DNA of 63,518 nt, the filler included, from Sluysia triapertura (lineage: Eukaryota), in assembly GCA_046118255.1 (NCBI GenBank). It is 5 parts of 5 records of this genome, joined end to end, with 100 filler letters (N's around TTAATTAATTAA, not from the genome) between each part and the next. Parts side by side here need not be neighbours in the genome. Positions count along the whole stretch, not along the records: positions 1 to 11,316 come from JBJNIA010186068.1; positions 11,417 to 25,016 come from JBJNIA010029943.1; 3 more parts are not named here. One strand, written 5' to 3'. Shown piece by piece: positions 2,556-50,641 of the stretch; the first letter of the stretch is position 1, and every line of letters begins with the position of its first letter. The notes under the pieces are model-generated. The model was not told where the DNA came from. It made no database searches and worked only from the letters and a program-made list of their open reading frames with translations. Made by a program: the position numbers and the translations under genes.

Positions 2556-3862
2556 TTATTGAAAATAACAAAATAAAACTTTATTTATGGAAAGTTTTAA
2601 TTTTGATACTTCACTCCTATGTATGATTCTTTTTCTTATCGTTTCACTCTCTAAAAAAAATTGATAATAAAAATAATAGATAACACTAAAGATATCAAAG
2701 TTATAACTATTTACCTTGATGTTGTAGTCCATTAAAATATTGCGAGATGTAATACTCTTTAGTAACTCTATAATTCTTTGTGAGTGTCTATTGTAAGTTG
2801 TTTCATCTTTATTGCTGATCGTCAATTCTAGAACAGAATGAGTGTAACGACAGAACATTCCATGCATTAAGCAAATATCTTTGTTGTCGGTAGAAGCTGG
2901 ACATAGGGCAGCTATACGACCAATTTTTTGATTATTGAACACGTAATATTCATGCTCATTAGCATTAAGTCTAGAGTCATCACGTTTATCATCATTAGGT
3001 GAACAAAAATCATCATTACTATTATTATACACTTCATAAACCTTAGATTTATTTTTATCATGTTTATAAATATTATTATCATCAAGAAAATTAAATACAA
3101 TTAATTTATAATCATAAAATTCGTAAAGACATTACTTTTATTTAAAAAATCGACTTTATACTATTTGAGTTTATGGATATTATCTTCGCAGCAGTAAAAG
3201 GAATCATCATGTGCTTTACTGTTGTTAACTTGATTATCGACATCTTTCTTCCTAGTTTGCGTGACATCATTTCCAACACTGTTATCTTTATTGTCATTAG
3301 GGTTATCATTGTTAGCTTCATAATATTCGACTTCGACATTATTGACTTCGCCACTGTCACATTCAAGATTGTTATTTTGGAAATCGTTGTCTCTACTATT
3401 GCTAATCGCGTTATACTGATCTTCAAAATTATATGCTCGAAAGTTTTCGATGTTATCATCACTAATTTTATTCTTATGGTCTTTAACATTAATAACTATA
3501 ATATTATCATCTTTAGTGTTGTCAATCAGGTTATATTTATCTTTATAATTACATATTTGATAGTTGTTATATTCAACATCATTAACTTTATTTTGATCAT
3601 CTTTAACATTTATAACTGAAACCTCATCATCTTTACTGTTGTCAATCAGGTTAAACTTATCTTTATAATTGCATATTTGATAGTTGTTATATTTAACATC
3701 ATCAACTTTATTCTGATCATCTTGAGCATTTATAACTGTAACATTATCATCTTTAGCATTAATAAGTGGTATCATTTTTTCATAACCACCAAGATTAGTG
3801 TTTTCCTTTAATTAAATTAAGATCGCTAACTCCATTTTGCTTTTGGATTTGTCAGAAGCCAT
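2556..3862 (-). pseudogene. CCCH zinc-finger family copy 1 (N-terminal 40-aa acidic repeats plus C-x9-C-x6-C-x3-H finger); disrupted or spliced
   Basis: Finger CPASTDNKDICLMHGMFCRYTH at 2903-2838; GT-AG intron 2714-2651. Upstream ORF 3775-3161 is in a different frame, so a frameshift or an unresolved intron separates them. Confidence 0.65.
3385..3765 (-). repeat. Coding tandem repeat, 120-bp (40-aa) unit, ~3 copies
   Basis: NAKDDNVTVINAQDDQNKVDDVKYNNYQICNYKDKFNLID / NSKDDEVSVINVKDDQNKVNDVEYNNYQICNYKDKYNLID / NTKDDNIIVINVKDHKNKIS... Confidence 0.85.
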
Positions 3863-3899
3863 GTTGTAATGAAATTGTGAAAATTTTTAGTTCCAGTAA

Positions 3900-4095
3900 T
3901 TGTTGATTGGTCATCCAACCAAAAGCATTTACAAGAAAAACACAGTGATACATGCTGATTGGATGGCCAATAGCGAGATACATAAAATAAAGATAATTGA
4001 TGAATAATGAAATCACACTGTGATGACAGCCATCATCAACAGTGACATGAAATTATAAATATAAACCAAAATGTCACTGCTGATGATGGCAGTTA
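3900..4095. promoter_or_regulatory. Putative promoter block of CCCH copy 1: two TGATTGG-n4-CCAA palindromic motifs plus a 20-bp inverted repeat
   Basis: TGATTGGTCATCCAA (3904) and TGATTGGATGGCCAAT (3956). Inverted repeat GCCATCATCAACAGTGACAT (4029-4048) / ATGTCACTGCTGATGATGGC (4071-4090), 19/20 match, 22-nt spacer. Regulatory role is inferred. Confidence 0.45.
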
Positions 4096-4329
4096 CTCAA
4101 GTTGATTATGGGCTTCATTTGAAAAATAATGTAAAAATAAAATGAATGAAAATAAAAATGGTGATAGTAATAATAATAACAAAATGTTAAGAGATTCATA
4201 TAATATAGTTATATAGAAATGAAACTTCTTTATCTTTAAGGCTTTTAACACGAACTGTCTTTTACATCCTTAATTTCTTGACATAGTAGACTTAAAAACA
4301 ATTAAACTTTGGTGAATTGTGAATTTACG

Positions 4330-5160
4330 ATGTTAAATATCGGGATATGTTGAGCTTAAACTTAGAATGTTTAGATCGGTTGAAGATGTTTGTTGGTTAA
4401 TATCGGACGTAATTGTGCTTGAATCATTAAGGGATGAAAAATATAATATTTTGAATGAATTTTTTTAATGTGATTTAATGGTTTTGAATGTAATAATGGT
4501 TTGGATGTTATGAGATTGTGGGTTTAATTGGTTTTAGCGGATGAAGATGTTTTAGTGGATGTAAAAGAGAAAAATATGGGAATGTTACAATGTTTAAGAA
4601 TATGGTTTTATGTACAATAGGTTAATTTAGCTTAATGTTGTTTTCTGTTGATTTTTGAATGTGATTTGTAGTTTTTGAGGATGAATATTAAGTTGGCGGA
4701 AGTTAATGTAAGGGGATATTTTTGATGAATGTTTTGTGACTATATAAAATAATTTTTTAATAAAATTTATTAAGAAAAAAGGTTGGCCATCACACTCACA
4801 TTTTTAAATTCACAATTCAGTACAAAGATAACTAAAATCATATCCTTTTCAACACCACATAACAACCTTGTAAAATTCGTCACAACCGTTTCTATATCTT
4901 AGTTCTTTTCAGATCCACCAAAATCAACTCTCATTTTTTCAAAACATTTCACATCTACAATCTCATAACATACAAACCACAATGACAATCAACACCATCA
5001 ATTTACATTAAGAGATTCATCAAAAATATTTTATTCGACATTTCATAACAATCTAACTAAAACCACATTCGAAATTAACTACCAGACACCTTCAAATTAA
5101 TTCAAACATTTATGTTATTTCAAAATAAGTAAATCTTAACCTTTCAATGCTCAAGCTTAC
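4330..5160. repeat. Two head-to-head diverged copies of a strand-skewed repeat forming an imperfect palindrome
   Basis: A G/T-rich arm (4330-4794) and a C/A-rich arm (4795-5160) align in inversion, e.g. CACAATCTCATAACATCCAAAACCA vs TACAATCTCATAACATACAAACCA. Confidence 0.65.
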
Positions 5161-5390
5161 CTTCAGCTAAAAACATTAATTCATTTATTCTAGCATCCAC
5201 ATAAAGCATTCATATTGTTCAAAATATTTAACACCTAAATTTATTTTCACTTGAAATGAGTAAATAGCATTAAAAATTACACTAAAACACTTTACGTATT
5301 ATCTTATAACATTAGTATTAAAAATTAGCAATATTAAAGGACTGAATAGTTGTTTAGTAAAAATAGATCAACCTATTCTTAGGAAGGAAC

Positions 5391-6438
5391 ATGTTGATAA
5401 AAAGAATGTGAAGTATGTATGCCCCTTAAAAGAAATTAAAAAAGATGATCATTATATCAGTACTGGACATAACAATATTTTTATTTACTTGAAACGACAG
5501 TAATGAGACAGAATGTAAAATAATAAAGATTTCAGATATGTTGTTGAGATACAGAACGAGGTGATCGAAACGTATAGAATCAATGAAGTTCATCATAAGA
5601 TCGAAGAAATAATTGACGGTTTTAAAATAGCATTTAAACCCCATGAATATAGAATAGTAACCAATTGTGGGGTTGGTGATGTAGTTTTATGTAAAAATAA
5701 ACATGGATTAGGTTCCAGTGGAGAAATAAAGTGGATGGATTTTGATCAAGTTGAATATTTTAGATTTGGAATTGAAACTTACAATTATCATCCTGATGGC
5801 ACGAACAGTACATGTTACGATAAATCATTTCTTTCTTATAAACACAGATATGAGGTTATAGTGAAATCACATTTGGTAAACCACAAGTGAATATTGCAAT
5901 GGATGCGTTAAAATCTGGAATCTATTAGAACTAGCGATGATGATGGCAATTTTTCTCAAAATATGCAATTTCCAGTCTTAGATAACATTATACCGTAGAA
6001 CATACATTATCAAGTTGTGCAAATGATCGACAAACGACTTCACAGAATTATGATATATTAAAAAAAAGAAAATATCAAGGAGCAGTCAGTAAAATGTAAA
6101 AGTGAATTTATCAAGAAGGCATTCTGCCCATTCAGCAGCGATCACAATGGCATTTGCATAAAGTATGGAATTGGTTGCATATATGCCCACACAGTTAATC
6201 AATTGGTGTCTACTAAGGAAAAAAACATGAACTGCGATTACCATCCTTCTAGAGTAGAGGAACTTCTCATGAGTCTCAGATCACCGATTCGAAATTCGGC
6301 AATTGACTCATTCATCATAGATAAACAAAAAAGTAAATAATTTTTATAGTTCTATTGATGATATTATAATTTTCTATTGTTATTCAGATAGTGAAAAGTG
6401 GAATTACATTGAAAGCATACACAAGAGTGGATCAGTAA
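5391..6438 (+). pseudogene. CCCH zinc-finger family copy 2, with in-frame stops and frameshifts
   Basis: KAFCPFSSDHNGICIKYGIGCIYAHTVNQL (finger 6125-6190), then ...SRVEELLMSLRS. Intron 6333-6387 (GTAAAT...TTCAG). In-frame stops at 5996 and 6059. The 5' boundary is approximate. Confidence 0.7.
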
Positions 6439-7920
6439 AAAATAAAATTATTATAAATAAATTTTAATGTAATTTGTATTTGTTATTTATGAGTTTAGAA
6501 ATCGTTTTTGTTTTATAATTTTAAAAAATAAAATTTTAATAAATCTAAGTAAATGGCTTAACACGAATAAAATAAATAACATTATAAACCTAATTTTTAA
6601 TTCAAAAATCATAAATTATATTAACCCACAACAAGTATAAAGAATATCTAATTGGATAATAGGTAAAATAATAACCACTTAAAACAAGGTAATATGAACG
6701 AGTTAGATAAAATTTAGTATATAAAGGATTGAGAATTGTATTGCGATCACACACACAAAATAAATCGAATTATAAGTTAGTAGAAGCTACAAGTTAGTGT
6801 CGCAGCTATTCGGTTAAGTGTGAGAACATAAATAAGTAAATGAAACACACTTTCTCAACATTTTAAGTGTTTAATATTAATATTTTAATATTAAATAATA
6901 GTAATATTTTAGTAATATAATAATATTGAGTAACAAAAGTTAACCTATTTATCTTTCCTAAATAGACATTGTTTAAAAAATTTTATTATTTGGATTAATA
7001 AAAAAATTTCATTTGAAAGATTTTGTTATTTGGGAAACATATCTAATTTAAAATTTATTGATCCATTAATACTTACTCGTGTCAGCGTTCAAGATCGAAA
7101 TCTTTTAAGTTTACGTCAGTTTGTTATTATATGTTTCGCTTACTTAAGAAAGCATAAAATAATTTTAATTTATTAAAGATACCATAACATATACCATAAC
7201 ATACATATTTATTTATATCTATTTATCTAAAATAACCTTTTGTTTACTTTTTATATCTATTTAAGAGTGAAAATAGTAGATTTTATTTGGATAAATAAAT
7301 ATTGATCATTAATTTAAGAATAAATAAACTGTAAAAAATTTGTTCAAGTAATTAAAAGGTTAATATTATTTAAAGATTAGTATGAGCACTATCCTTAATA
7401 TTTAAACTGAATTAACGTTAAAGAAAAGAGATTCAAAAAGGAATTGATCAAAAGGCGCTTTTATTAGCAAGCATCATAAATTTCATAGTAAAACCAATCT
7501 AATATTGTAAGTTTCCAACTAATTCTACAAATTTGTTAGAGAAATATTTTATATAAAATTCCTAAGCTCGTATACATTATTTAGTTAAGGAAGTTAACGA
7601 TTATATATTTTCGCTTATATCATTATTTTTGTACCTTAAACATTAATATTAATAAATCATTATATTTATTAATTACTACTTTACTACTTGCAAAATATGA
7701 ATTAACTTAAACTTAAAATTTTTTGTAATAGTAAACATTAGCTATTTTTATATTGCTTATAAACTTTTGAATTCATTGTGTTTTTTCTATCCTAAGACAC
7801 AAAGGCGGATAAAAACTTTGACTCTTAATATTAAACACGTTTAGGTTAGATTTACCAGTCGAAGACAACAATAACTTAAACAAACTTGAGTTTTTCAAAT
7901 TAATAAATTAAATTTTCAGC

Positions 7921-7981
<61 letters not shown>
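7921..7981. repeat. (ATT)n microsatellite
   Basis: About 20 perfect units; similar tracts at 2025-2052 and 17425-17487. Confidence 0.95.
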
Positions 7982-9079
7982 GCTATAAATAAATAGTACA
8001 AATAAATAGTTGTCTGAACAAATAGTTAAAATAAAATAATAATACTGAAATACTGAAATAAATATGTAAGATGAAACAATTTATAATGCTAACTGAAATA
8101 AATGCAGAAAGAAATTAATCAGAAAAAAATTTGCGAAAATTACTATAAGAGTTCTTTTCACTGTCTATTTCACTTTTTTAACTTGGTGTATGTAGTTATT
8201 CAATTATTAACGAAAAGCATTTGGCATATATCGTGATTCAATTATTAAAAGAAATATATATTGTTCTATTATTAATGTAAATGTATCAAAAAAAATTAAT
8301 ATGTAAATGTTAAAGACCTAATGTAAATTTTGAAATGTTAAATGTAATTCTCATACAATTTTTGATAAAAACTGTAAAAATAGTTATTATTTATTAAAAT
8401 TATTATTCTTGAAATTATATTATATGATTATCAAAATCATATTTGTTAAAATTATCAAGATTACTAAAAGTACAAACATATAAATGATGATTCAGTTGAA
8501 TAAGTAACTTAATATGTGCAACATAATAAGGTCATAACCTGAAGAAAATATATAAATACGAATAATTTCATATACATTTTTACAAGTTTTGTGATTTTTG
8601 TCAAACTCTTTGAAAGTTGAGTGATATTAACAAGAAAAGTGACGTGAAGTTGTAGTTCTTTAATAAATACGTATGCAGTGATTTATAATATTTTAATTCG
8701 ATCGGTCAATCTCCAGAAAGATGTTATTTAGTAATTACAACTTCAATATTGGTTAATTTGGAAAAAGAATATCTACAATTCTTGCTATTCAACTCTTTCG
8801 TTAGTTTTAACATTACTAGGCAATCTATTTTAATTAAAGCTCTAAAATCTAACTTAAACTATTTATATAATTTTTTAGTAATTATTTAAATTGAATTCTA
8901 AATAAAAATTTACAATTAGTCTTTATCTATTGTAATAAGTGATACAATTAATATTGTAACATTCATTTATTTTTAAAATTTTTTATTTCTGTAACATAAT
9001 TAATATTCATTTATTTTTTATTTTAAATTTTCAAATTTTTTAAAGTTTTCCATTTATAATTTAAATTCATTTAAAATAA

Positions 9080-9480
9080 AATTAATTTCAAATAAAATTA
9101 AAATCATTATCATTAAGATTATAATGGTTTATATCAATTAAAAATGAGATTTAATAGAATTAATATAACTTCAAAATTTAATAAACAGCAACTAATTTTA
9201 AATTAAAATCAAATAAATTGTCATTTTTAAATAAGATTCCATAAAGACACTAAAACATCAAACTTTAAGAACATAACGATCATTTTAATACGTAAGTTAA
9301 AATCATGTTAAACTGAGATTTAATAAAACTAGTATGTAAATAAAAATTAACAACATTATTCTCGATCAAAATTAAAGATTGGGTATAACAGAGAAATTAG
9401 TATATCAAAATTCAAAGTATCATAACCGACAAAAATCATATTAAAGTGAGAATATAAATAATTTATAATCAAAATTTATT
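9080..9480 (+). repeat. Dispersed AT-rich repeat, copies at ~41660-41890 and ~54380-54780
   Basis: Shared blocks AACTTTAAGARCATAA and CGATCAAAATTA; AAAATCATATTAAA is shared with the 41.8 kb copy. Confidence 0.6.
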
Positions 9481-10279
9481 AACAACTTCAGACGAAAGGT
9501 AATAGCTATTATGACTTATGAAACTATTATTACTTGTTGTGCTAGTTATTACTACTCATTAAATTTGTACTATCAACTATTGTTATTATATATTAACTAT
9601 ATGTTGATGAAATTATAATTTAGTAGTTTCACTACCATTTATAAAATTAATATAGAATAAAAATTAAAAACAGTATAAATAACAACAAATTTTCTACAAA
9701 AACACAATTAACTGGAAGAGTTACAAATTTTTTCATAAACAGATAATTTTTTGGTATTTTCATCAAATTTTGGTAGCATCTTTGAAATTCACCTGGTTAA
9801 TTGAAGATCAATAATATTCTGGAATCTATTTGGGCAATTTAAGCAATATATAAATCATTTTTATTAATTGTTAATCTAAATGATTGTTAATAAGTAAGTA
9901 ATAATTGTTAATTTTATCTGAAGATTAATATACTACATTTTATCACTAATTATAATATTAAAATTTGTCAGTTTTATTAATATTTATCAAACTGTCTGGT
10001 TTAAATAATAACTCTACTTTTATTGTTGAAGTAATTGATTATTTGATTAATAAATTTTCTCAAATGAATTTGTTTTGTTAATTAAGTATCAAAAACAAAA
10101 GGAGAGAGCCCTCAAAGGAAAAATAAAGTAAAACAAAATAGTATTTGTTTCAAAATTGAATCCTAGTATTCTCACAAAATAAAATAGAGTAAAATAAAAT
10201 AATATTTATATAGTAATCAAAGTCGAATCCAAGTATTCTCGCAAAATAAAACAAAGTAAAGTAAAACAAAAACTTAATT

Positions 10280-10485
10280 TCGGGTTTCCATTTCAGATTA
10301 CCGAACCGAGTATCCGATTCCACGTGTTATGGATAAAATAAATTTAAAGCATAAATATTAATTATAAAGGAGCCTAACGATATAAGGTAAAATAATTACT
10401 AAGAGAATTTAAGTTGCTATTGACGAATAATACTTTGTACAAGTGAAGATATTTAGACTATTGTCGAAGACTAAGGTGCATTTTA
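10280..10485 (+). repeat. Dispersed repeat, second copy at ~33738-33893
   Basis: TTTCCATTTCAGAT...TTTAAGTTGYTATTGACGAATAATA...AAGTGARGATATTTARACTATTGTYGAAGACTAA is shared. Confidence 0.75.
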
Positions 10486-11316
10486 ACTAAAGCAATGCAG
10501 TATAAAGTAATTTAAAAACATTGAAGAGTAATAACATTTAGTAAACATTATATTAAAGAATTCTAAATTTTACAGTCATAAAAGATCACAGTTAAAATTA
10601 AAAATTAAGTGAGCATATTGATAAAAGGATTAAAATATTATTACAAACAAGAATCCATAGAGAATTACAAAATCTATAGAACGTAAGAGAGCATTCAAAG
10701 ATATTTAATTTCTGTAAATAACAATCAAGCCTATAATTTTATAAATTTTACAATATTAACTATATTATATATAACATTGTCTAATTCTATATCAGTAATT
10801 GTGTAACGATTATAAATTAATATTTTTATCATTAATAAATTTATAGAAGTTAAAAATATGCTTATAAGTTAGGATTCGAATGGGACGTATATCTTACCAC
10901 AGTTAATTAATTTATATAGATTTAATAAGTATAAAATCCAGGGCTAAGTAATAATTTTATTGAATATATTAATTTAATTGTCCAGATCCTATTTAAAAGT
11001 TTGTAATCTCATACAAAATACTTAATTTTGTAAATACACAACAATTAATAAATTTAGAATAAAACACACAAATTTAGATCAATAAATTTAGAATAAATTT
11101 AGAAACACACAAATTTAGTTTCAATATGTAAAAATATGTAAATATTTAGTTTTAATCAATAAATTATATGTAAATATGTTTAGTTCACACAATAAATTTA
11201 GAAACATACAATATTTAGCTATTTAAAAAATTGGATTAGCAATAAAATTATTTTGGATTAATTATCAATAAAATTATTTAATAATTGGAATAATATAGGT
11301 AAGTCATCATCATTTT

Positions 11317-11416
11317 NNNNNNNNNNNNNNNNNNNNNNNNNNNNNNNNNNNNNNNNNNNNTTAATTAATTAANNNNNNNNNNNNNNNNNNNNNNNNNNNN
11401 NNNNNNNNNNNNNNNN
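11317..11416. other. Artificial assembly spacer (44N-TTAATTAATTAA-44N); also at 25017-25116, 39720-39819, 51899-51998
   Basis: Identical 100-nt structure four times; the 12-mer puts stop codons in all six frames. Confidence 0.95.
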
Positions 11417-12133
11417 TTATTTAAAATAAAATTTGTAATCCAGAGCTTACAATAATAGTTTGTAATTAAATAGCGTAAAGATAAAAATATTTACAGTATT
11501 GATCTTCAGTTACTTGACAAAGCTTTAAAATCCTACTCAAACGTCCATTATAGGTAAATCGTTTAACGTAGGCGGACCCAAAATCTAAAATTAACATTTT
11601 TTATAATTGTTCAGGTAATAAGAAAACCGAACAGTCACATAATAACGAAATTAACATTTATAATTGAATTGAAATAATTTAGACCGAGTAAAGTAGTAAA
11701 AATAATATTTAAATTTATACTAAAATAATACAAACGTATAATATGGATATTTTTAAAATGTGGAGAATAAGTAAAAAAATATACCGAATGATAGAGCAGC
11801 TCTACCTGTATATAGATTTGGATAAATATGGCATAAAAATATCTCAAAATATAAATAAATAATAGACAATAGAAAGGCTACGTGAACTGATTTAACAGCT
11901 TTATAAAATAATAGCATATGAAAATATGCCTTTAAAACACTTGAATGTATGTCATATAATTTATCCATATATAATATATGATTTGTTTTACCTGTGTAAT
12001 CTAATGTAGCATCAAATATACTTTCATTAAAATTTTTTTTCATAAAATATTTAAACTTTTTAACATTATGAAATATTATAGTTTTATCTGAAATATAACC
12101 AGTATATATTAATTTAATTTTAAAACATTTTAA

Positions 12134-12351
12134 TACCGTAAAATCCCATACATGGTCTCACCCTTGTATAAGCCGAACATTATAAATTTTTTAAAACGAT
12201 CTTTGTTTTAAATCTTTCTTTAAATACTATGTTAAACTTCACTTTTCACAAACTAAAGTTGTTTTTTTTCTCTTGTTTTAAAATCTTGTGTATAAGTAAA
12301 TATTTTTAAAAAAAACAACTTTTTTGTAGATATGCCACGGCTTATACGGTA
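12134..12351. mobile_element. Possible Tc2/pogo-type MITE
   Basis: Ends TACCGTA...TACGGTA; GTATAAGCCG near the left end recurs inverted (CGGCTTATAC) at the right end. Confidence 0.45.
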
Positions 12352-14169
12352 ATAAAAATAATTTAATAAAATTTTTAAATTTCACATTTTAATAAGATGG
12401 AAAGGTAATGATGATAATGCTATTATAACAGTAATAATAATACAAAATTAAATACGATAATAGGAAAATAATATAATGACAGTAATAATTTTAAAATTAT
12501 AAACTTTAGTTTCTGTCTGCATATTGTTTTTGTGATTTTTGTGACTGTAGTTGTACAGATATGTTGAATTTGAAATGCTTGATTCTTCCTTGATTAGATC
12601 CTGCCAAAACGGACTAGACTCTTCTTATAAGGATAACTAAGACAAAGTGTGAAGCACTAACTGAATTAAGAGCAGCCGATAAGCCTGAATGCACACAACT
12701 ACCAAAGGAATTATTTCGTGATGTGTACAATTCAATTGATTCACATTTTGAGAACAAAGGATAACAAACAAATAAAATAAAATTCTTTTACATATTGAAA
12801 ATTATACAATCTACAAAGCCTTAACTAGGCAGGTGCAACATGTGACCTTAGAGGACTAACGATTGAATACATGTGCTGACGACGAAAATTTATGTATACT
12901 GACGATATTCTTATAATCGTTTTCTAATCCATGAATTTGCTGTTTGGATTTTTATTTTTATAATGAACATGTATACAAATATAATTGTTGCGTTATATTG
13001 CCCTTTATTGGCACTATCTTGCACAGACCTAGAGAAGCTAGTTATACGGGATACTATGTCTATTGTGATTGATTATTTGATTGCCTGTATATGTTGATGT
13101 ACGATTTTAATCTTTAATAACATTTTTAGTCTATTTATTATTCCGAAACTATATATAAGCTAATCGTTTTTCATCCTCACTAATCACGACAATGTTTTAC
13201 AATTTCTAAATTTAAATTTCGTCTTTTTATTAATTTTATTTAATCTAAATTGAAAGTAATTAAATTGATCATCATACCTTTCTACAACCAATTAATACAT
13301 TTTCATAAATTTACTAAATTAGTACACATCAAATTAAAAGCGTCAGTTTCACTATCAATCACTATTAACAGTATAAACACAGGGGTGACTATTTAATTGT
13401 ATTGATTCAAAGACTGAATTTAATACATTCTGATAATGCTTAATCAGATCTAAATAAGTCACATGTTTAAATCAAATCATAGATACATAATTTAATTAAC
13501 TTGCCTGAACTAATATGTATCTGTAAGTGAATCACTTGCATTATTTATTAAGATTACGTTTGGTTTCACATTAAATAAACATTGTGTATTATTATTATTA
13601 TTATTATTTTAATGAAATGGTGCATTTGATATTATGTCTAGTATTGTCTATACATAATATGTAAGAAATTTATATATACAGACATTGTAGTATGCTCTAA
13701 ATATAAACCATGATCTTACAAATACGAATTAATATCAATGCATCATATAATAAAGACTTATGAATCATTAATTTCCACTTGTACTAAAGTATCAATTAGA
13801 TAGCCTCACTTAAGCACAATGTATGCGCACTTATAATTAATAGCACACTGCATTGTTTTTATATTAAATTGTTTATAATTATTAAGTTTATTTAACATTA
13901 AATTGAATTACAATATAGGGTAAAAATTTACACCGTATATGAACATTTAACCGTGCAAACCTAAATAATTACCAATAAAATAAATACAATAATATTAGCA
14001 GTTTTGAAAGGTAATGTTTTGTTCCAGTCCATTCCCTTTATACCTTTTTGTATTAACATATTAATTTTGAATGTTTTAAAACTACTACAAATTTACTTAT
14101 TCGTTATCAGATAAAATATAAAAACGAATTAAACTGGAAGTTTAGGTTTTATAAAACTGTTTATCTAAC

Positions 14170-16196
14170 TGATCTTGTGCCGCATCCCGAGTTAAATCGA
14201 CTCCCGGTCTCATTGTACGATAATGTAAGCGTGTCTGATTAACTTTAAGGAAATTTTCTTTATCGCGAATATCATCTTTAAGAGCTTGAATATTTTTTTC
14301 TTGATCTGCAATTTCTCGACAAGTCTAAACAAAAAATTATATAATTGTAGAATAAAATTATCTGTTGATAAATGAAAGTAAATAATCAATAAACAAACTT
14401 TAACAAGATTATCTTTAATTTTATTACGTTGATCAACATATTGATCAATACGTTTTTGGAACGATATATCAGTGGCATCAGCTTGTCGACGAACGTCTGT
14501 TGCAGCATCATTGACTAAGTTTGCACATAATGCTAACAACTGTTCACTAGCCATTCGTTCATGTTCAGCTCTTACAATATTGTCGTGACTAAATTGAGCC
14601 CATGATTGCGGTGTTGATTGTATCTCTTGATAACGGGCTACACCATGATAAAATTGTTTGTTAGTACTGCTATTTGTGAGAACACGTCCTCGATCATCTA
14701 ATTGTTCAGCTTCATATTTATTACTCCAATCCATTTCAAGAGCTTCTTTAATTTCTCGATTTCGTCTAACAAAAAAAAATAAAATTTTATTTTTAAAATT
14801 TACAATTATTTTTATTTACTTAATAACAGATTTCATTTCCTAAATAAATAATGGTTAAATTTTCAACATAACATTTTGCGTTTTATACCACACTTTATAA
14901 AACTTATTTTTCATTGTCAAAAATCATTTTTATTCATATTCTACTGCAATATTTATTTGTTTTTTCGGTGTTTACATAGTGATTGAAATTTAAATATAAA
15001 TGTCAAACAAAAGATAGCATATTATGAGATTGTGGAATTAAAATTAGACTGAAAAATATAAAACAATGAATAAAACTAATTTGAAAATAAATATATGGAC
15101 AAAAAAGAAAATCATGGAATTTATTAATCAAGGAAATCTTTATGAATTACAGTTACTAGAAAAATATAAATCAATAGATTACAATGTGCGTGACTGCGAA
15201 GGTTATAGTTTATTACATAATTGTTTGTTTTCTTCAATCCGACGTAAAAGTAGTGTATGTTTAATTGAACACATTTTAAAAATGGGTGGAAATCCTATGC
15301 TCAAAGATCAAAAATATAAAAGAGATTGCATAAGTTGGTCAATTGTATATCAATCAATTGAGTTTTTAGAATATTTTTTAAAATATTGTGCTAGTATGCT
15401 AAATTTTTATTCAAGTGATATTAACGGAAATTCTTATTTACATTTGGCAGTAAATACAGGTCAATTGGAAATTGTAATGATAATTGGAGATATTATGAAA
15501 ATTAATTACGTAGATTTTGATCATATTAATAGTGACGGTTTAACAGCACATTTATTATCATATTATCATGGATACAAAGACATTTATGAATTACTTGAAC
15601 AAAAATATGATTTACCGAAATATTGTGTTGACGATATTAATAAACGTTCCAAAACGATGCTTTGTGAAGATGGATTTTTAAATAAACAAAAACAGCGTCA
15701 AGAATGGTTAGTAAGAACGAGAAATAAGCAACGTATTTATGGTAATAATCCTAATAACATCAAATTACCAAAAATCGAATTTATACCTAAAACGAATAGT
15801 AAAACTATTGTATCAAGTGGAAGAATGGAAAATTTTCGAGAATGGTGTTTTGATATAAAATTAAATAAATCTACAGAAGACGATACACCAAATTATTTTC
15901 AAAAGACCAGTTATGAAAGTTTTTTATCTCATTACATGAATTATTATTCAAAACAAATGTTAACGTGTTATCGACCTGACAAAGTTTATGACAAGAAATC
16001 CATCGAATCTTACATTAAATTAACTAATATATTAAATTGTAATAGAAAAAGACGTCAAACGAAAAGTAATTTAAGAAAAAAAACGTGACATTTAATTGGA
16101 TAAAAAATAACATTATATATCTTACCTTATTTGTTTATTGAATTCTTCGATGGTTTTTCTGAGCAAATCTTGTACTTTGTTAAGAACATCTAATTC
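14170..16196 (-). CDS. TEKT4: Tektin (tektin-4-like), three internal exons: 16196-16126, 14765-14399, 14324-~14170; 5' and 3' exons not found
   Basis: Spliced translation ELDVLNKVQDLLRKTIEEFNKQIR|RNREIKEALEMDWSNK...STPQSWAQFSHDNIVRAEHERMAS...NLVK|TCREIADQEKNI...QTRLHYRTMRPGVDLTRDAAQ follows the tektin-4 pattern. RPGVDLTRD is a variant of the tektin nonapeptide RPNVELCRD. GT-AG introns of 1360 nt (phase 2) and 74 nt (phase 0) keep the frame. Confidence 0.9.
15066..16088 (+). CDS. Intronless ankyrin-repeat protein (340 aa, ~4 ANK repeats; possibly ANKRD34/63-like), nested antisense in tektin intron
   Basis: Longest ORF in the window, ATG to TGA. Ankyrin motifs: DCEGYSLLH, DQKYKRDCISWS, DINGNSYLHLAVNTGQLEIV, NSDGLTAHLLSYYHGYKDIYELL. 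Confidence 0.88.
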   Translation: MNKTNLKINIWTKKKIMEFINQGNLYELQLLEKYKSIDYNVRDCEGYSLLHNCLFSSIRRKSSVCLIEHILKMGGNPMLKDQKYKRDCISWSIVYQSIEFLEYFLKYCASMLNFYSSDINGNSYLHLAVNTGQLEIVMIIGDIMKINYVDFDHINSDGLTAHLLSYYHGYKDIYELLEQKYDLPKYCVDDINKRSKTMLCEDGFLNKQKQRQEWLVRTRNKQRIYGNNPNNIKLPKIEFIPKTNSKTIVSSGRMENFREWCFDIKLNKSTEDDTPNYFQKTSYESFLSHYMNYYSKQMLTCYRPDKVYDKKSIESYIKLTNILNCNRKRRQTKSNLRKKT

Positions 16197-17422
16197 CTAA
16201 AATAAATATTTAATATTATTTTATATAAAAAAATTAATGCGTTAAGTTGTGAATCTAACTAAGAAAGAACACTGATTTTGTCTCAAGTTAATTCTAAGTT
16301 AATTGAACACAGATCAATGCAATATAAGAAATAATTGAAAATATTAAGTAATATGTATAAAATAAATTGCCATAGTACAGAGATTCATCGAAATATTTTT
16401 ATCCATACTAGGCTGAACTATATCAAAAGATTCAGCTTAATTAAAATAATTTTAATTGCTATGCTATGGTCCTCTTATTTTCTAACCTACGGCAAAATAA
16501 AATTGAACAGGGTCCGGTTACAGTAAACGTCTTATGTCGTAAAAGAGGGCATTACTGTAATTACACGTTTATTTTGTTACCTTTTCCTTAATAATCAGTC
16601 AATCTGGGTTCGATTTTTAATTCAAAAGTTATAACTATGATGCGATTTATATATTGGCCTGTTACAAACTTTAAATTGAAATGAAAACAATTTAATAAAC
16701 ATAATATTTATTATAGAAATTAAAGTAAATATGATGCAAAGCAAAAGTAAGGAAAATAAAATAAAATAATGTTGTATTTTATAGTTGTGTTTGTAAAAAG
16801 GTTGTAATGTCAACCTAACAGCTACAGCAATAACTATAACGATTATCAAAATACCAAATGGATTATAATACAAAATTGCAGACAAATAAGTATTCACATA
16901 TTTTTATCTTCAAGATTTCAAAACAACTTTTATAATTTTAGAAAAATGGTCTCTTTATACTTTATTTAATATTTTATTATTTTAGATATTCGTGGATTAT
17001 TTTGTTAAATTCAATAACAAACAGAGACTTGTTAAATTTAGTTTACCAAAATATAAATCTAATAATTGGTGATTAAATAAACTTCAATAATTCAAGTATG
17101 CCTTGAATATATCGATAATTTGTCATTATTGTTTTTAATGAATGATTTTTTCTTCATAGTATATTTATTATAGTTATACGAATTACTGTTTATATTATAT
17201 TATATTATACAATCTATTCTACCAAAAATTGTGTAATTTTGACGTATTATAGATAATTTTGCTATATATTGAACTTAGTTATGTTATAGTTTATCACAGG
17301 TACATTACATTAATTTTTGATATTGTCAACATTGTATAATGAAATTATGCAATATTTCATTGTCAAGGTATAAAAGTTAAAAGTTTTAAAATGAAAAGTT
17401 ATAAGAAATAGTAACGAATACA

Positions 17423-17474
<52 letters not shown>

Positions 17475-19439
17475 TAATAATAATAATGTATATAAGTTAT
17501 TATTTATTTTATTAAGTTATTAATATATGTTCTGGGCGAATTTTTAATTATACAATTTTTTTTGATATGTCTACTTGATGTTTTAAGTGAAGTACACAGA
17601 CAAATCCATATTTAATCTATATTTAAAAAAGAAGAAACAGATTAGTATAACAAATAATCTGAGTATCATAGAGGAGCGTCTATCTGAGGTAGGTTAACAA
17701 ATCAACAATATTCTTAATCGAATAGATCATATATTTATAATTATTTAATGGAGTTGCAAGTGTTTTACTATGAAAGAGTTTATCTTACACCTTAGCAAAA
17801 TGTCTGGAAGTCCGTTCGCCTAATAAGTACGACTTAAATCTGTGAAGAAGGATTTTCATGAAGCAATTGTGTAGTATGTTACAGTTTAGAAGTAATTACA
17901 TAGTTCGCGAAAGATTAATCACGTATATGACGAATATTTTAATGTAAGCAAATCATATTTCTTTATTTTATTTTGGAGTCAACTTGTTACGGTCTGACAA
18001 ATAATAGTAGATTTTAAATGTTAAGTTAGCCTGTTACGGTCTGACAAATGATGCGATATTTTAAATTACTCAAAATAATCAAATTAAATAGTCGTTATGC
18101 GATATTTATTAGCAAAACGTAAAATAAAACACTTACAATGACAAAAGAGTTATAACAATAATAAAATAATTATAATAACAAGAGTGATTTTAAACTCTTA
18201 AGATTAAATCTTAGATTCACAATGATTTTGTACTCAATTAGTAAATAAGAGTGCATACGCACTGGTTGGTTAAATGAGTACTTAGTATTCCTCTTGTAAT
18301 AAAATAAAGAGTACGTATACACATAAATCAAGCACTAAGGCCTAGACCATATTATCATAAAAGTCTGCAATCAGAATTAGTGGCTCGTCCACCGGATTTG
18401 AGTATAGAATAATCAAGTAAATTAGAGATTTTGGATGAGTTTTCTTAACTATTAAATTAATTAAATAGTATTTCGGTCCTTCTTAAACTAGGACGAAAAC
18501 AATGTTTTGTCGTCGTACTTAAACCGAAACAGAAATAATTCCGTAAGGTTGAAACTAAATCCCTATATTTTACATCCTGTCTCAACAAGATTTATACAAT
18601 TGGTACGCTTAGTTTAATTGTTTGTAGGGATTAGTGAAAATTACATATTTTCTCTTTTAAATTTGTGGAATGATATATTATAGATTATAAAATAACATAT
18701 AAAATATATAAAATTTATCAAATTTAAAGCGAGTTTTAAATGTAAAATTAAGCATTAAAATTAAATACTTTAGACATTTAAAAGTCTTTATAATAGTTGT
18801 AAATACATTGTTACTTCGATTTTATTCTATATTAAATATAGAAAAACTTAAATAATAAAACTAAGGCCAAGGAATACAGAAAATTAGTTTTAATGGCGCG
18901 TTTATTGAAATAATGAAATAAATGTATTCTTTTGAACTGTTATTCAGTTTATATTCTTTAGTATTTAAATTATGCCAAATAATTGAGANNNNNNNNNNNN
19001 NNNNNNNNNNNNNNNNNNNNNNNNNNNNNNNNNNNNNNNNNNNNNNNNNNNNNNNNNNNNNNNNNNNNNNNNNNNNNNNNNNNNNNNNNNNNNNNNNNNN
19101 NNNNNNNNNNNNNNNNNNNNNNNNNNNNNNNNNNNNNNNNNNNNNNNNNNNNAATGATCCTGACACTTTATTATTCTTGTTTATTTCTTTGTTATTCTAT
19201 AATCTTCTTCATAATCATTCTTCTTTCGTCATAAACATTCTATTTTATTTTACCTGGACTTGGACTTTTCTGGTAATTTTGCATTTAGTAAAATTTTAAT
19301 TACAAGTTTCCATTTTAACTTCTTAAAAGCCTTTTTACAACAATTATTACGTACAATATTATTACAATATTTTTCTATATTTCTCTGAGTCTTTTATTTG
19401 GTATTATTACTTAGCCTAACGGTACTTTTATTCCTACTA

Positions 19440-20316
19440 TTATTTTGATTGTCGAAATCGTGTCCTGCATTAAGTGGCCATCTTGGTAACTCTTAGAATT
19501 GAAATTATTGTCATTATCGTCGCTAAAACCAAAATTATTATTGCCTTTAAAGGCCTGATAGTTATTATCTCCTCTGCAATCCACAAGGATTAGTAATCTT
19601 ATTAAATTATTTCCACTAAAATTATTTCATCTGAAGTTAAAATTAATAATTAAAACTATTACTGTTGTTTATCCAATCACTGGTTCTATGTTAATTAAAA
19701 TTACTATTAGATCCAAATCAAAGTTATGTTTCTTACATTCTAATCTTGAAATTCCATTTTCTTAAACTTTCTATTTTCATAACTATCTACACAATCACTC
19801 ATGTAAAGTAAATTATCTTTTTTTCGGCTTGAGATTTCTCGGTAACTCTAAATTTCTTAAAAATATCTTTAAACAGTAAATTAGTAATTAAACTTACATA
19901 AGCTCTTTGCTTTGAATGTAACCATTTTTAATTTATAAACTAAAATTGAGCCATAGTCCTGCATACCAAAGATTTTAATGCACATGTGAATTCATAAACA
20001 GTTTTTGTTTTCTTACATTAAGCATTTTAAAAATAATATATATCTAAATTTAAAGAGCTATATCTTCAGTAAAAACATTAATAAATTTTTGCCAATTTTG
20101 TTTATGTTTATTAGCAATCAAAATTACTCCGTTTAAATAATTTCGTATGCGTTTAATTTTGTCGGTTTCGTTCCACTCGTTTACTTCTGCTATATAATCG
20201 TGCTGAAAAAGAAAGTCTCTGAGATATTTTTCTGCATCGTTAAATTTACGTAATCCATGGAGTGGCATTGCAAGCCTTATATATTTACCAAATAAAGGCC
20301 TATAGTCTAAATTCAT
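19440..20316 (-). mobile_element. Degenerate LTR-retrotransposon (Gypsy-like) gag remnant
   Basis: FLFQHDYIAEVNEWNETDKIKRIRNYLNG resembles a gag capsid N-terminal region. It is followed by an N-rich linker and a decayed knuckle-like GHLMQD near 19480. Confidence 0.5.
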
Positions 20317-23300
20317 TTATGGATAAAGTAGTTTCTTGGAAGTCTTTTATTATTTTCCTTTGTAGTGTTCCTCCATGTAGTCAATACCCCACATTTCTGT
20401 GATGATTAGTATGATAAGATAGATTATTTTTATGTTTATTTAGAAATAGCTTCCTTACTCATCGTGAATTCTCTATGATACTGGACTTACTCACTGAAGG
20501 GCCAGTACATAGATTTGCAGCTTAAGAAAAGAGAGATACGACTGGAGGTATATATTTATATTTAAAAATCCCCCTAAACTTGCTTTGTTATTCTATTATA
20601 GAAATAATAAACACACTAAATTTTAATATACAAATCAATTAACTTCGAACAAAAATATTATAGTGCAAGTAGATTACTCAAAACTATTTAACAAATATAT
20701 TTAATAACAAAATGTCAATAAATTATAAATCAATAAGACTGTTATATTATAAAGTTCACAATAGAGTTAAATAAGTATAACGATACTTATGAGAACTTAA
20801 TGTCTAAACTTTATAAAAACCAATATTAACGATATACACAATTTGATATTTATTTAACATTAATATTACGTTAAAAATATTTTAAAAAATTATTTTATGT
20901 TGTAATAAAAATTACTGATTTTTTCTTTTATACTATTATTTTAAGTATATTTTATATTAATAATCAAAATAAACTTATAAAGATAAAAAACTAACGATTT
21001 ACAAAGATATTAATTTTTAGCCTCAATAAATCAAATTGTCTTCAGTAATCAATCGTAAGGATCAAAATTTCTTCAATTGTTGACCGTAATACTAAGAATT
21101 TCTTCTATTATCGACCGTAACATTATTTATTCTTCGTAGTTAATCTTCAAACCAATTTATAACCTTACTCTCAGAGTTATATCAATTTATAAAAACTATC
21201 AAAATAAAACTTATATTTATACTTTATTGTTACCAAGGAATGTAAATATTAGTGGTATATAATAACAATACAATTTTTCAAATAACACTTTTTAAATAAT
21301 AGTTTTATAACGTTTTTATACAATTAAATATATTTAAATATTTTATAAATTATAATTTTTGAAATAATAAATAAATATTTTTAAATATTCTATGGTAATT
21401 TCAATTATAATACTATTAATTTTATTAATTTCACTTATAATAATAATAAAATGGTAAAATAATTTAATAATAATAGTAAACTGTACCTTTACATTTCCAT
21501 AAAACACAAATATAAACAATTAAAAACTTCTCAAAGAACTTTATCATTGTCAAATAAATAAATTATTCTAATTATGTCACTTAATCTCAATTCAACTCAT
21601 CTTTACAAAAGCTTTATCATTTCCCATTCTCAATCTCAGTTTTGCTTTATCTATATGTAAAATTTCTTACTGAATACTAAATCAATTACTTTTCAATGGC
21701 TATGGATTCATTAATGTTGTACATATAAATGTATCATGATAGACTCATCATTTTTTAGTTTTAATATTTTTACTACAAAGTTAATCGACCACAGTAATTG
21801 GCAAATCAGTTTTTTATTAAAGTATTGTTATTTGTACGGACATGATAAGTTTCTAAAAATTGACTACCAAGTTAATATCTTAACGTTATTGTTGCATATA
21901 TATGTAAATATTAAAAAAGTATAATTAAAAATTGTTAATCGATATTAGTTGTCTTAAGTAAAATGCCAACATCGCCTTTACCTTACTTCTGTGAACAGAT
22001 TATTACATAACTGTTTGATATCTAGAAGTTTTAACGATTATTTTAAGCTGATAAGATTTGGAGACAATCAATTATAGCTTCAGCTCAAAAATTACTATCT
22101 GATATGTTTTGGGTCAGTATGAATTTTTACATTACAAAAGGTATAGTATCTCCTTAATTTAATGTTTATGAAACTAACCGTTAATGGCTGATCTATCATT
22201 TCATAATATTGCCGTCTCACTTAAGCAAGAACGTCCATTATCAACCGTTATAATTGTAATGATATAAATTTAATTTTTTCGTTGCGATAATATAATGATG
22301 TAAATTTATATTATTAAACATATTTTTGTAAATTTAAATAACGTAAATTTGTAATATTGAAAACATATTTTGTAAATTTAAATAGATAGTTTCTGTTATA
22401 TTGTTATATTTTATTAATATTTTTATATTATTATAAATAATCAAATTAAGTTCGATTTTCATGGAGTTTATAAATGTGACTTTTAAAACATAAATTCCTT
22501 ATCGAAAATTCTTTTTGATCATCCCTCCTGTCCATTATATACTCAAACCTTATTATATTGTTTTCTTTACTAGCATGCATCTTTCGCATTCATTGACTAT
22601 ATTAAATGTTACTTTTTACAAAACTTTTGGAACAGATCTCTTAATCATTCTTTGTATTACCTTTATATTAATCTAACTGAACATCGACTCTTCATTCCGT
22701 CAATTCCGTTCTAACTAATAATCACGACTATGTTCATAATTCTCTATCATCCACAACAAATGAAATCCAAGTTAAATGTTTAATACAATCAACAAAAATG
22801 TACATACTTAACTATGAAGATTTATAAAATCCTCGACCATCCAAATCAAATAAAACCAAAAATGACCTTGTAACTCAAATAGTAAAATCATATACCACAA
22901 ATATAACTAATTTACTAAATCCTTATTAAGTTTTATTAAATTTTTCATCTGTTGTTATAAACTTATAATATCAAATGCATACTTAAGTGCAAACATATAT
23001 AAAAAACGAAAAATATCAATAAAACTTATAAAAAGTATGATACTTTATCAATAAATTCAAGGAATCAAAATCAAATATCAATAACTTAAAATCAAATCAA
23101 ATTCAAATGCATAACTTATAAAAAGTTATTAATAAAAGCTTAATTATTATCAATAATTTATTCAAATTCAAATAACATCTTTTTGAAAATAATCTTATTT
23201 TAACTTTAATATTAAATAAATCGGGAAACTTCTACCAAAACTTGTTTTGTGGTAATAATATGTTATTTCTATATGTATTATGTTTTAATTTATGATTATA

Positions 23301-23511
23301 TGAGATAAAACATCGGTTAACAAAATTAATTTACTTAGATTTATCACAATTAGAGAAAATTCAAAATTAATATTATAATTATAATTTATTATGATTCTTG
23401 TTACTAAAGTAAACTCAAATTTATTAAATAATAGATAAACATAAAAGTGACGACTAAGTTGATTTATTTTATTTAAATTTTTGTAAAAATTAGTTAATTT
23501 TTGGATATAGT

Positions 23512-24524
23512 TTACATATTTCTTGAATACGCCTGGACGTAGCTATGATTGGAATTCTAAAAAATACAAATATACAAATTGATTTATACCAGAGTAAATT
23601 AAATTAAATTTCAAAATTACTTTTAATTTTTTCTGGTTCGCCGGATCAAATGATGTTACTGCCAAGCTTGACAATATATCATTATTTCTGTCATAGTGAG
23701 TATGGAATTTCGATGTAGAACCAATAACATCTCTAATATCATAAACTTGATGACAGTATTTGCAATTTCTACCATACCGGGAACATTTGCCAGTCTGTGC
23801 AGTTCCTTAAAAGCAAATAGCATCTTGTAGTGTTTGTCTTCGTTAGGATAAATCTGTGGATTTGCATTGAAAGGTATAGCAGCACCATAAAAAATTTTAA
23901 AATGACTAGGTTTTTATTTATTGTTTGACGCGTGGGTCTTAAATAATGTTACTTGACTTGTCATGACAAGATAACTAATTTGTGGATCGTTAGGAATGCA
24001 TTAGTAAGTTTTTGTATAACTTCATCATCAATTGTTACAATTAATCTAAGAATCCTTTTATCCTTTTAGATTTTAACATGATTTACAATTACTAACATGG
24101 TTTCTTTGTTACTTTTACAAATCATAATAAGTTCTTTTGGCCGAACTGGATAAAAACGCGTAATTAAACATCTTGTACTAATATCGTATACCTGCACTGA
24201 ACTAACATAGAATTCGCTAATTTCGTAATTCGAAATGTTTGTAATTTTTTGTTGTACTATAAATGATTTATGAAACATACTATGTAAAACTAATTTTTTA
24301 TTAACAGATTTCATATTTACTGAATAATTATTCTGCTATTTACTGTGTTGCACTACACTAAGTTCATCTTCAAATTTACTATCTTTTAATTGCTTAGCAT
24401 TAACAAAATAAACAACATAACGAATTTCAAAATTATCTTTTTTACCAAAGTCGAGTAATGGATTTCTATCACCATATTTGGATAACATATACAACGGGAA
24501 ACTAAATGTCTTTTCTATATTCAT
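23512..24524 (-). pseudogene. CCCH zinc-finger family copy 3, disrupted
   Basis: AICF*GTAQTGKCSRYGRNCKYCHQVYDI (finger 23815-23750, with an internal stop). 64-nt GT-AG intron 23620-23557; last exon NSNHSYVQAYSRNM*. Upstream ORF pieces 24524-24336 and 24314-24066 are in the same frame, separated by one stop. Confidence 0.62.
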
Positions 24525-50639: not shown

Positions 50640-50641
50640 TA

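Follow-up and report, generated by a model that had tools for sequence, protein, structure and literature searches.

The window analysed here, a stretch of 63,518 nt from Sluysia triapertura (GCA_046118255.1) in which five records are joined with 100-N fillers, contains three copies of a CCCH zinc finger, found by a six-frame scan at 2838..2903 on the minus strand (c1), 6125..6190 on the plus strand (c2) and 23750..23815 on the minus strand (c3, whose third codon is a stop), with the positions and sequences quoted in the initial annotation. These are the only three matches to C-x9-C-x6-C-x3-H in the six frames of the window, against a mean of 0.05 and a maximum of 1 in 60 local shuffles; the TIS11/TTP-type motif C-x8-C-x5-C-x3-H is absent from all six frames, and a general CCCH scan detected no neighbouring fingers, each copy carrying one. 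The Pfam family PF25427 matched c1 (E 0.0042), c2 (E 6.9e-7, 29.5 bits) and c3 (E 9.8e-5, stop read as X), although none of the copies reached its curated cut-off of 31.1 bits (scores from highest to lowest 29.5, 22.6 and 17.4 bits); PF00642 matched none of the three. The zinc ligands and the aromatic positions are kept in all three copies, the latter as in TIS11/Unkempt-type fingers, with Y/H-G in the Cys2-Cys3 interval and Tyr in the Cys3-His interval. Zinc and RNA binding are predicted for the product, which is probably RNA-binding; the AlphaFold model, with a mean pLDDT of 38, is too poor to bear out the helix that the initial annotation placed after the finger. The spacing had been called atypical, but the third zinc finger of Unkempt (PDB 5ELH) has it too.

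The proposed paralogy of the copies holds, all three pairwise alignments of the finger exons beating shuffled sequences (0/500 each); the c1/c2 alignment runs ungapped for 55 codons, with 36% identity. Similarity of the tail that follows the finger is significant, once the finger is removed, for c1/c2 (1/1000 shuffles) but not for c1/c3 (216) or c2/c3 (199). Similarity to a possible fourth copy at 1250-1720 was not significant, and hemagglutinin matches (E 0.39-0.96) were dismissed as chance.

Intron-like GT-AG segments are present as described, 64, 55 and 64 nt long and lying 41, 47 and 43 codons downstream of the His in c1, c2 and c3, respectively, the introns themselves being predictions. 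In c1 the predicted intron (2651..2714, minus strand) is in phase 0, and the last exon (2650-2597, minus strand) meets a stop at its fifth codon, with an AATAAA at 2585-2580. The tiny last exon that had been reported is in frame in c3 (predicted intron 23557..23620, minus strand, phase 0; last exon 23556-23512), while in c2 (predicted intron 6333..6387, plus strand) the donor is off by one base, which puts the homologous last exon (6388-6438, LKAYTR) out of frame as assembled. Since a contig spanning 5885-6382 matches c2 with 0 differences and 0 gaps, assembly error was ruled out as the cause of its breaks. Every copy is disabled, as had been noted, by stops and frame changes, and no intact copy was found. 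The Asn/Asp-rich N-terminal coding region of c1 (3164..3862, minus strand) has a stop inside at 3814-3812 and a terminal stop at 3163-3161, with a frame change between the latter and the finger exon; it includes tandem units of ~120 bp at 3390-3760, the number of which differs among related contigs, as judged from contig joints. In c2 an open frame of 123 aa with no known family (5519..5887, plus strand) is separated from the finger by four stops, and in c3 the N-terminal coding region (23890..24524, minus strand) carries four in-frame stops and then frame changes ahead of the finger. These N-terminal regions are not clearly homologous among copies, 4 of 5 pairs being insignificant; the c1/c3 pair scored 0/500 shuffles, but both are N/K/D-rich. 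A possible GT..TG intron at 3135-3083 in c1 was rejected, related contigs diverging there into different Asn-rich sequence, as was an alternative genetic code (TAA/TAG as sense): the standard code leaves a 346-aa ankyrin ORF and tektin exons uninterrupted, and the copies carry TGA stops and frame changes too.

The copies c1 and c2 each lie within a discrete element. That of c2, about 1,990 bp long without the insert, extends over 2308..6633 (plus strand, ends TGTAGTG...CACAACA), is flanked by AGTAT at 2303..2307 and 6634..6638, and is split near its left end by that of c1, which measures 2,333 bp (2462..4794, minus strand, gene-strand ends TGTGATG...CACAACA), has the opposite orientation and is flanked by CTCAC (plus strand) at 2457..2461 and 4795..4799. 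Both 5-bp target-site duplications are perfect, and the ends were set independently by homology; the two words have frequencies of 0.0018 (AGTAT) and 0.00035 (CTCAC) among the 5-mers of the window. Contigs joining 2422-2458 to 4794-4824 represent related copies lacking the c1 insert, and the contigs show unrelated, single-depth flanks beyond the termini. The att motif of animal Metaviridae and retroviruses, TGTTRNR...YNYAACA, is matched 6/7 and 7/7 at the two ends of both elements; being symmetric, it gives no orientation. The terminal inverted match is only ~8 bp, with no long inverted repeat. Chance readily produces TGTNR...YNACA pairs flanked by a 5-bp duplication (the window has 172 and shuffles 98.5, or 3 against 1.0 once filtered for G+C), and the duplications therefore count here only through ends defined by homology and contig joints; one such pair, 4019-6751 with a CACAC duplication, was discarded because it cuts across the nested arrangement and has a CA run at its end. 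For c3 a probable downstream end, CCACAAAACA, lies at 23243..23252 (minus strand; 6/7 att match, weakly similar to the c1/c2 ends), and the other end may lie at the gap 25017-25116; its upstream region shows no resemblance to the conserved end of c1 and c2, and a partner end at 27080, equally without likeness to that end, was put down to chance.

The two elements share one end. The terminal ~450 bp of c1 (4340..4794, minus strand; the gene strand has 4% G and 23% C, and its complement is GT-rich), a candidate R-U5, is 67-72% identical to the corresponding region of c2 (first part 2308-2461, second part 4800..5130, plus strand), scoring 177 vs 58±9 in 200 shuffles. A further end of the same family, TGTAGTGGCCAACC, with G 4%, runs into a gap at 52000..52324 on the minus strand (score 96 vs 63±8.5, 0/200 shuffles); all three ends have 4% G and 22-29% C on the gene strand. 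When contigs of one DNA run (X1) were aligned to one 4.65-kb stretch, outside which c3 lies, 6,538 matched, mostly 80-95% alike (437 at 99% or more, 4,991 under 95%), and c1 and c2 are thus high-copy repeats; the many further copies foreseen earlier do exist. Summed contig depth, which does not equal copy number, is far greater on the G-poor end (up to 16,918 in c1; 13,065-24,250 in c2) than on the finger exons (1,160-1,300 in c1; 438-640 in c2), compared with 13.7-23.8 for contigs unique to the locus. A strong hairpin in c1 (4019..4099; 23-nt arms, 91% complementary, z -7.2, 0/200 shuffles), not seen in c2 or c3, is covered by 82 contigs, with a depth of 8,910 at 4029; Rfam gave three weak matches, all below the gathering score.

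Searches outside the window support the lineage restriction previously proposed, in that profile, word and viral-contig searches gave no homologue. The three-copy profile found no family member among 1.84 billion representatives, its 12 matches being 11 multi-finger TIS11-like proteins, picked up by summed finger scores, and one repetitive artefact; word searches yielded no homologue among 878 candidates and, the second time, no candidates, and 0/73 viral contigs carried one. The terminal motif gave two metagenomic loci, which proved to be one contig sequence twice, with a chance match within an unrelated ORF. In the ESM Atlas the finger exon reached 0.89 at best, with CCCH clusters, which serves as a lead only, and the N-terminal region of c2 gave nothing usable. 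As to mobile-element genes, Pfam scans covered 150 of the 400 ORFs of at least 40 aa in the window plus 18 others; reverse transcriptase, RNase H catalytic and integrase families were absent from the 150, no transposase or Gypsy-integrase-like domain was matched in the ORFs of c1, c2 and c3, and no full-length element with two LTRs, PBS, polypurine tract or gag/pol was seen in the window.

Between c1 and c2, pN is 0.39 and pS 0.82, and second codon positions are identical at 36/55 sites vs 20/55 for third positions (Fisher p 0.004). The two copies diverged under purifying selection, though both are broken now; selection would work in replicating master lineages, the solo copies decaying neutrally afterwards.

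On balance, we read c1 and c2 as solo LTRs of a Gypsy- or BEL/Pao-type retrotransposon, with a spliced gene in U3, probably antisense, that would encode an accessory protein with one CCCH finger; c3 is probably a solo LTR of the same family. The finger "genes" are the decayed cargo of a mobile element present in many copies, most likely the unusually long (2.0-2.3 kb) LTR of a retrotransposon. That the units are discrete, with TGT...ACA ends, 5-bp duplications, nesting, high copy number, an ORF once under purifying selection between subfamilies and decayed inserted copies, is observed directly; the class of the element and the function of the protein are what we infer. Full elements would have been inserted by integrase, and LTR-LTR recombination would have left a single LTR between the target duplications. 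If the conserved GT-rich end of ~450 bp is R-U5 and the variable rest U3, the CCCH gene would lie antisense in U3, and its intron, not being spliced from the genomic RNA, would survive reverse transcription. An intron on the strand opposite the genomic RNA of a retroelement survives retrotransposition, and for this reason the retained intron is not, as had been argued, proof of duplication at the DNA level. The product would consist of a low-complexity or novel N-terminal region, one CCCH finger and a short tail; granted the LTR reading, its likeliest role, at somewhat less than even odds, would be in the export, stability or translation of the element's own RNA, which it would bind as an accessory factor much as Rev or CERV do; a role as decoy against host RNA decay or small-RNA silencing is somewhat less likely. 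U5 starts GT-rich (PMC3601003, in the part drawn on here), and one common end with a variable rest fits LTR subfamily evolution as in crapaud, as far as the cited account goes (PMC10787394). An AATAAA stands 120-230 nt ahead of the gene-side end, which fits an LTR in either orientation at 24% G+C, the value for this genome; its position is also compatible with a sense-orientation LTR.

The alternative that fares best, though unlikely, is that the units are non-autonomous cut-and-paste DNA transposons mobilized by an integrase-like (Ginger2/TDD-like) transposase and carrying an accessory CCCH gene, possibly a VANC-like anti-silencing factor. With no RNA intermediate the intron would be kept without assuming an antisense orientation, and both complete units are single pieces flanked by target duplications, with no retroelement genes among the ORFs scanned; against this, deletion derivatives of DNA transposons retain both ends, whereas in c1 and c2 one end is far more conserved and more deeply covered than the other, and neither copy showed a transposase remnant in the ORFs scanned, which a non-autonomous copy need not have. 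According to the portion of the Ginger description used here, Ginger1/Ginger2-TDD elements resemble c1 and c2 in their TGTNR ends, introns, 5-bp duplications (TDD-4/5) and size (2.6-7 kb), but possess terminal inverted repeats of 40-270 bp, compared with ~8 bp here, and the integrase-like transposase, both missing from c1 and c2 (PMC2836005). Solo LTRs with the gene sense in U3, like sag or nef, and with the LTR's own poly(A) signal, the CCCH protein shielding intron-containing genomic RNA from splicing and exporting it, are improbable: AATAAA and T-rich sequence 120-230 nt from the 7/7 YNYAACA end is the usual R-U5 layout (PMC3601003) and CERV is an export factor of an animal LTR element's own (PMC10309623), both as given in the parts cited, but a short canonical intron in genomic RNA should be irreversibly lost, and all three divergent copies keep the predicted intron; moreover, the conserved end would be U3, normally the variable part. 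With ...GGCCACTACA as the element end, a PBS beside it in full-length elements would contradict the sense orientation. The model of the initial annotation, a host gene family expanded through DNA duplication (segmental or tandem) and subject to rapid birth and death, agrees with the retained intron, the purifying selection and the disablement of all copies in the window, and is nevertheless very improbable in view of the sharp common termini, target-site duplications, nesting of c1 in c2, empty-site contigs, thousands of related contigs and unrelated single-depth flanks; it is already contradicted for c1 and c2, where the multiplying unit is a transposable element rather than a host gene, and stays formally open for c3 alone. 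A match to a known transposon ORF had been named as an outcome that would refute that model, and the finding that the unit is a transposable element answers to this in spirit. Penelope-like elements, a retroelement class that keeps introns, would be truncated at one end and have the deep end as the 3' end of their RNA, and would account for one end being far deeper than the other, but are scarcely credible, att-like ends with exact 5-bp duplications, seen in both complete units, being unexpected for them.

Returning to the antisense solo LTRs, a broader picture may tentatively be drawn of an undescribed animal LTR lineage whose 2-kb LTR holds, antisense and in full, the spliced gene of an Unkempt-type CCCH RNA-binding protein that the element has captured. 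Its subfamilies would keep the finger and R-U5 and swap the N-terminal region, and each solo LTR would add to the genome a transcription unit for an RNA regulator, opposed to host RNA silencing in an arms race and serving as raw material for new host genes. To our knowledge, the coding exceptions among LTRs are vertebrate retroviruses; an invertebrate terminal repeat with a selected, intron-containing RNA-binding gene would, if true, mean that accessory genes of the retroviral sort occur in a further place, and would provide an example from nature of an intron kept through reverse transcription. Were the units DNA transposons instead, an integrase-type element without long inverted repeats and with a selected accessory gene would also be unusual. 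In a compact animal genome, what looks like a lineage-specific expansion of genes can thus be transposon cargo, which annotation would count as host genes.

Among known proteins, Unkempt has six tandem CCCH fingers and a C-terminal RING, unlike the one finger per copy found here; its ZnF3 (5ELH; PF25427), which has the identical spacing and aligns without gaps, is the best PDB match of the three-copy profile (E 0.001, 22.2 bits). Descent of the finger from Unkempt is suggested only, because c3 alone scores TIS11-like and MBNL fingers above 5ELH and PF25427 also matches TIS11-type proteins. Among mobile elements, c1 and c2 resemble, in the parts of the sources cited, the solo LTRs known from animal Metaviridae (Gypsy/Ty3) or Bel/Pao, with TGTTRNR...YNYAACA ends, short inverted repeats only, a GT-rich terminal region, nesting and a short target duplication (4-6 bp; 5 bp in both complete units here) (PMC3601003); unlike them, c1 and c2 are 2.0-2.3 kb long and protein-coding, with the internal region not seen in the window, although plant Ogre LTRs reach similar lengths (1.9-6.5 kb; PMC6431247, as far as cited). 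Accessory or RNA-handling proteins of animal elements are known from CERV of C. elegans Cer1 (PMC10309623), the extra ORFs of bdelloid LTR elements (PMC5408684) and the CCCH-containing Gag of Saci-2 (PMC2582038); all are encoded in the internal region, none being described inside an LTR in the portions of these accounts considered. LTRs are ordinarily non-coding. A parallel in the cited part of the literature is MMTV-type sag of betaretrovirus LTRs, a gene in U3 mostly preserved as solo LTRs (490/527 contigs) and decayed, with an omega of 0.289, just as c1 and c2 have a protein gene inside the presumed U3 and decayed copies with a purifying signal; sag, however, belongs to a vertebrate retrovirus and is sense and immune-stimulating, whereas the element represented by c1 and c2 is from an invertebrate, encodes a CCCH finger and has a predicted intron within what is presumed to be its LTR (PMC4667437).

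The C-x9-C-x6-C-x3-H motif occurs exactly three times in a six-frame scan of the whole window (mean 0.05 in local shuffles), at 2903-2838 (-), 6125-6190 (+) and 23815-23750 (-), which are the three same-type fingers (copies 1, 2 and 3) reported in the initial annotation, and the pairwise alignments of the finger exons beat 500 of 500 shuffles. The shared short intron and small last exon that had been described are recovered as predicted GT-AG segments of 64, 55 and 64 nt, placed 41, 47 and 43 codons past the His in copies 1, 2 and 3, each with a short last exon and an AATAAA downstream; in copy 2 the predicted donor misses the phase of the LKAYTR exon by one base. The proposed similarity of the tail following the finger is significant for copies 1 and 2 (1 of 1000 shuffles) but not for the pairs including copy 3 (216 and 199 of 1000), and the helix placed there is putative, the AlphaFold model having a mean pLDDT of 38. 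That all copies are disabled is borne out, stops or frame changes being present in all three; those of copy 2 are real, since a contig of run X1 (a DNA sequencing run whose contigs were aligned to 2250-6900) spans 5885-6382 with no differences from the window.

The spacing, formerly considered atypical, is the same as that of the third finger of mouse Unkempt (PDB 5ELH), which gives an ungapped alignment and the best PDB match of the three-copy profile (E 0.001). The only Pfam CCCH family matching all three copies is zf-CCCH_UNK, at 29.5, 22.6 and 17.4 bits, all below its cut-off of 31.1; a firm Unkempt origin is argued against by the observations that this model also matches TIS11-type proteins and that copy 3 by itself scores better with TIS11-like and MBNL fingers. 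Across the three copies the four zinc ligands, together with the Gly that follows Y/H and the Tyr that precedes the last His, are invariant or conserved; at comparable positions of TIS11-type fingers, aromatic residues stack on RNA bases. No full-length homologs were found in the sequence collections searched, and the available portion of PMC2478707 contains nothing on C-x9-C-x6-C-x3-H spacing.

Copies 1 and 2 are divergently oriented and have in common an upstream region of 67-72% identity. Following this homology and the joints of contigs, two elements can be delimited: c1, around copy 1, at 2462-4794 and flanked by CTCAC, is nested in the opposite orientation within c2, around copy 2, at 2308-6633 and flanked by AGTAT; contigs of run X1 connect 2422-2458 directly to 4794-4824, that is, the site without copy 1. 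On the gene strand both elements start with TGT(A/G)(G/A)TGGCCAACC and finish with CACAACA, and a third start of this type is found at 52324 (a 35-bp tandem array and more AT-rich tandem repeats, at 51467-51870 and 50600-51450, lie past the gap after this end). Chance often produces end pairs of this kind with a 5-bp duplication (172 observed versus 98.5 in shuffles), so what counts is that homology and contig joints had fixed the ends beforehand; given these ends, the 5-bp matches have window frequencies of 0.00035 and 0.0018. For the region around copy 3, with one probable downstream end at 23243 and a scaffold gap upstream, homology suggests a similar element.

The expectation of many more copies is confirmed by the 6,538 contigs of run X1 placed on 2250-6900, 437 of them at 99% identity or above and 4,991 below 95%. 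Contigs unique to the c1/c2 locus have a depth of 13.7-23.8, while summed depth on the finger exon is 1,160-1,300 for copy 1 and 438-640 for copy 2, and on the shared upstream region 13,065-24,250; summed depth is not copy number, and read loosely these values amount to tens of relatives per gene and, for the shared end, to several hundred or more.

As to the class of the element, none of the 150 ORFs scanned (of 400 of at least 40 aa in the window) matched RT or integrase families and no gag-pol partner was seen, so that we infer the class from other features. The ends of c1 and c2 agree at 7/7 and 6/7 positions with the TGT...ACA-type att motif characterising animal Gypsy and retroviral LTRs (PMC3601003). 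One end is conserved over about 450 bp, with a gene-strand G content of 4% in all three examples, and the opposite end can hardly be aligned (6, 9 and 51 of 200 shuffles); U5 is described as GT-rich (PMC3601003) and LTR subfamilies as differing in their 5' half (PMC10787394), and a conserved GT-rich end with a variable remainder is the pattern of LTR subfamilies, which would place the gene antisense in U3 and explain its retained intron. On balance, c1 and c2 appear to be solo LTRs with an antisense gene. An integrase-type DNA transposon is a possible but less probable identity: Ginger elements likewise have TGTNR ends and introns, with 5-bp duplications in TDD-4/5, but the group is defined by TIR of 40-270 bp (PMC2836005), against an inverted match of about 8 bp between the two ends here. 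A solo LTR with the gene in sense orientation is improbable, and all other explanations taken together are more so. The finger genes are decayed passengers of a high-copy element inserted by an integrase, most likely in the form of coding solo LTRs; the observation made initially stands, and its interpretation is supported in part, the reading of a gene family spread by DNA-level duplication giving way to one of mobile-element cargo.

Comparison of c1 with c2 along 55 codons that align without a gap gives pN 0.39 and pS 0.82 (0.31 and 0.92 for the finger alone; no exact ratio is given because synonymous sites are saturated), and the two agree at 36 of 55 second codon positions versus 20 of 55 third positions (p 0.004), a pattern indicating that the ORF was functional as the subfamilies diverged, though every inserted copy here is broken. 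One stop of copy 1 is private to it, given that 435 of 454 depth units of placed contigs have a different letter. The N-terminal regions vary by subfamily, with four of five pairings insignificant and c1/c3 merely suggestive.

Integrase insertion with a 5-bp duplication is the reading the sequence suggests; LTR-LTR recombination, the orientation of the gene within the element and the function of its product would complete the scheme. The predicted finger protein might counter host silencing, as VANC reportedly does. Alternatively, the selected single finger, predicted to bind RNA, would serve the export or stability of the element's own RNA, CERV providing the comparison (PMC10309623); one or other of these roles seems most plausible. 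A hairpin at 4019-4099 in c1 (23-bp arms, z -7.2; 82 contigs of run X1) is a candidate target of the protein or an inserted repeat, and its absence from c2 and c3 argues against a shared role; it is pre-miRNA-like and its run X1 depth exceeds that of its neighbours, Rfam miRNA matches being weak and below gathering score.

The window has a G+C content of 24% and short introns, and the host is an animal that evolves fast, probably a spiralian. A host tektin-4 gene at 14210-14815 (-), whose best named matches are annelid, nemertean, flatworm and mollusc proteins (54-58% identity; unnamed up to 60%), stands head to head with a 346-aa ankyrin-repeat ORF contained in one exon at 15048-16088 (+). 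Tc1/mariner transposase relics (DDE_3, HTH_48, HTH_Tnp_Tc3_2) lie at 29821-30051, 31176-31505 and 56255-56889. An intronless 168-aa frame at 60275-60781 (-), joining UNC119/PDE-delta-like (PF05351, E 1e-11) and degenerate Rab/Ras (PF00071, E 6.6e-10) sequences, looks like a chimeric retrocopy; no partner matches the similar LTR-like ends CACACAACA at 59450. Two tandem RNase H1 N-terminal domains (Cauli_VI, PF01693; E 9.7e-14 and 1.7e-7) in different frames at 39152-39465 (-) adjoin a scaffold gap, as do both members of a 79% identical repeat at 11521-11633 (+) and 25015-24904 (-), the second upstream of copy 3. The gaps at 11317, 25017, 39720 and 51899, of 100 bp each (N44-TTAATTAATTAA-N44) and several within repeats, are apparently scaffold spacers. 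A dispersed repeat at 32422-32612 (+) and 49687-49496 (-), 69-74% identical, has CACAC(A)AACA end-like motifs nearby, with ends at 33315 and 50556, and no target duplication was found for it. At 37015-37088 (-) lies a tRNA-like sequence whose anticodon loop is defective; its flank 36740-36811 recurs at 20464-20534, possibly as a SINE. Two metagenome loci (L001 and L002) with one and the same contig sequence, matched by the element's terminal motif inside an unrelated ORF, are chance matches; they are AT-rich, carry a long ORF as well as a GAPDH-like one, and by eye resemble a giant virus.

The literature searched, mainly open-access main texts, yielded no description of an invertebrate element whose LTR carries a CCCH gene or a gene with an intron, and a repeat-library entry is possible. 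Invertebrate LTR elements are reported to carry extra ORFs between pol and LTR or around env (PMC6431247, PMC5408684), and Saci-2 has a CCCH motif within Gag (PMC2582038). A precedent is the MMTV-type sag, which, according to PMC4667437, is located in U3, is found in solo LTRs in 490 of 527 cases and has an omega of 0.289 despite decay: as proposed here, a gene in U3, mostly in solo LTRs, decayed yet selected, although in that case the element is a vertebrate retrovirus.
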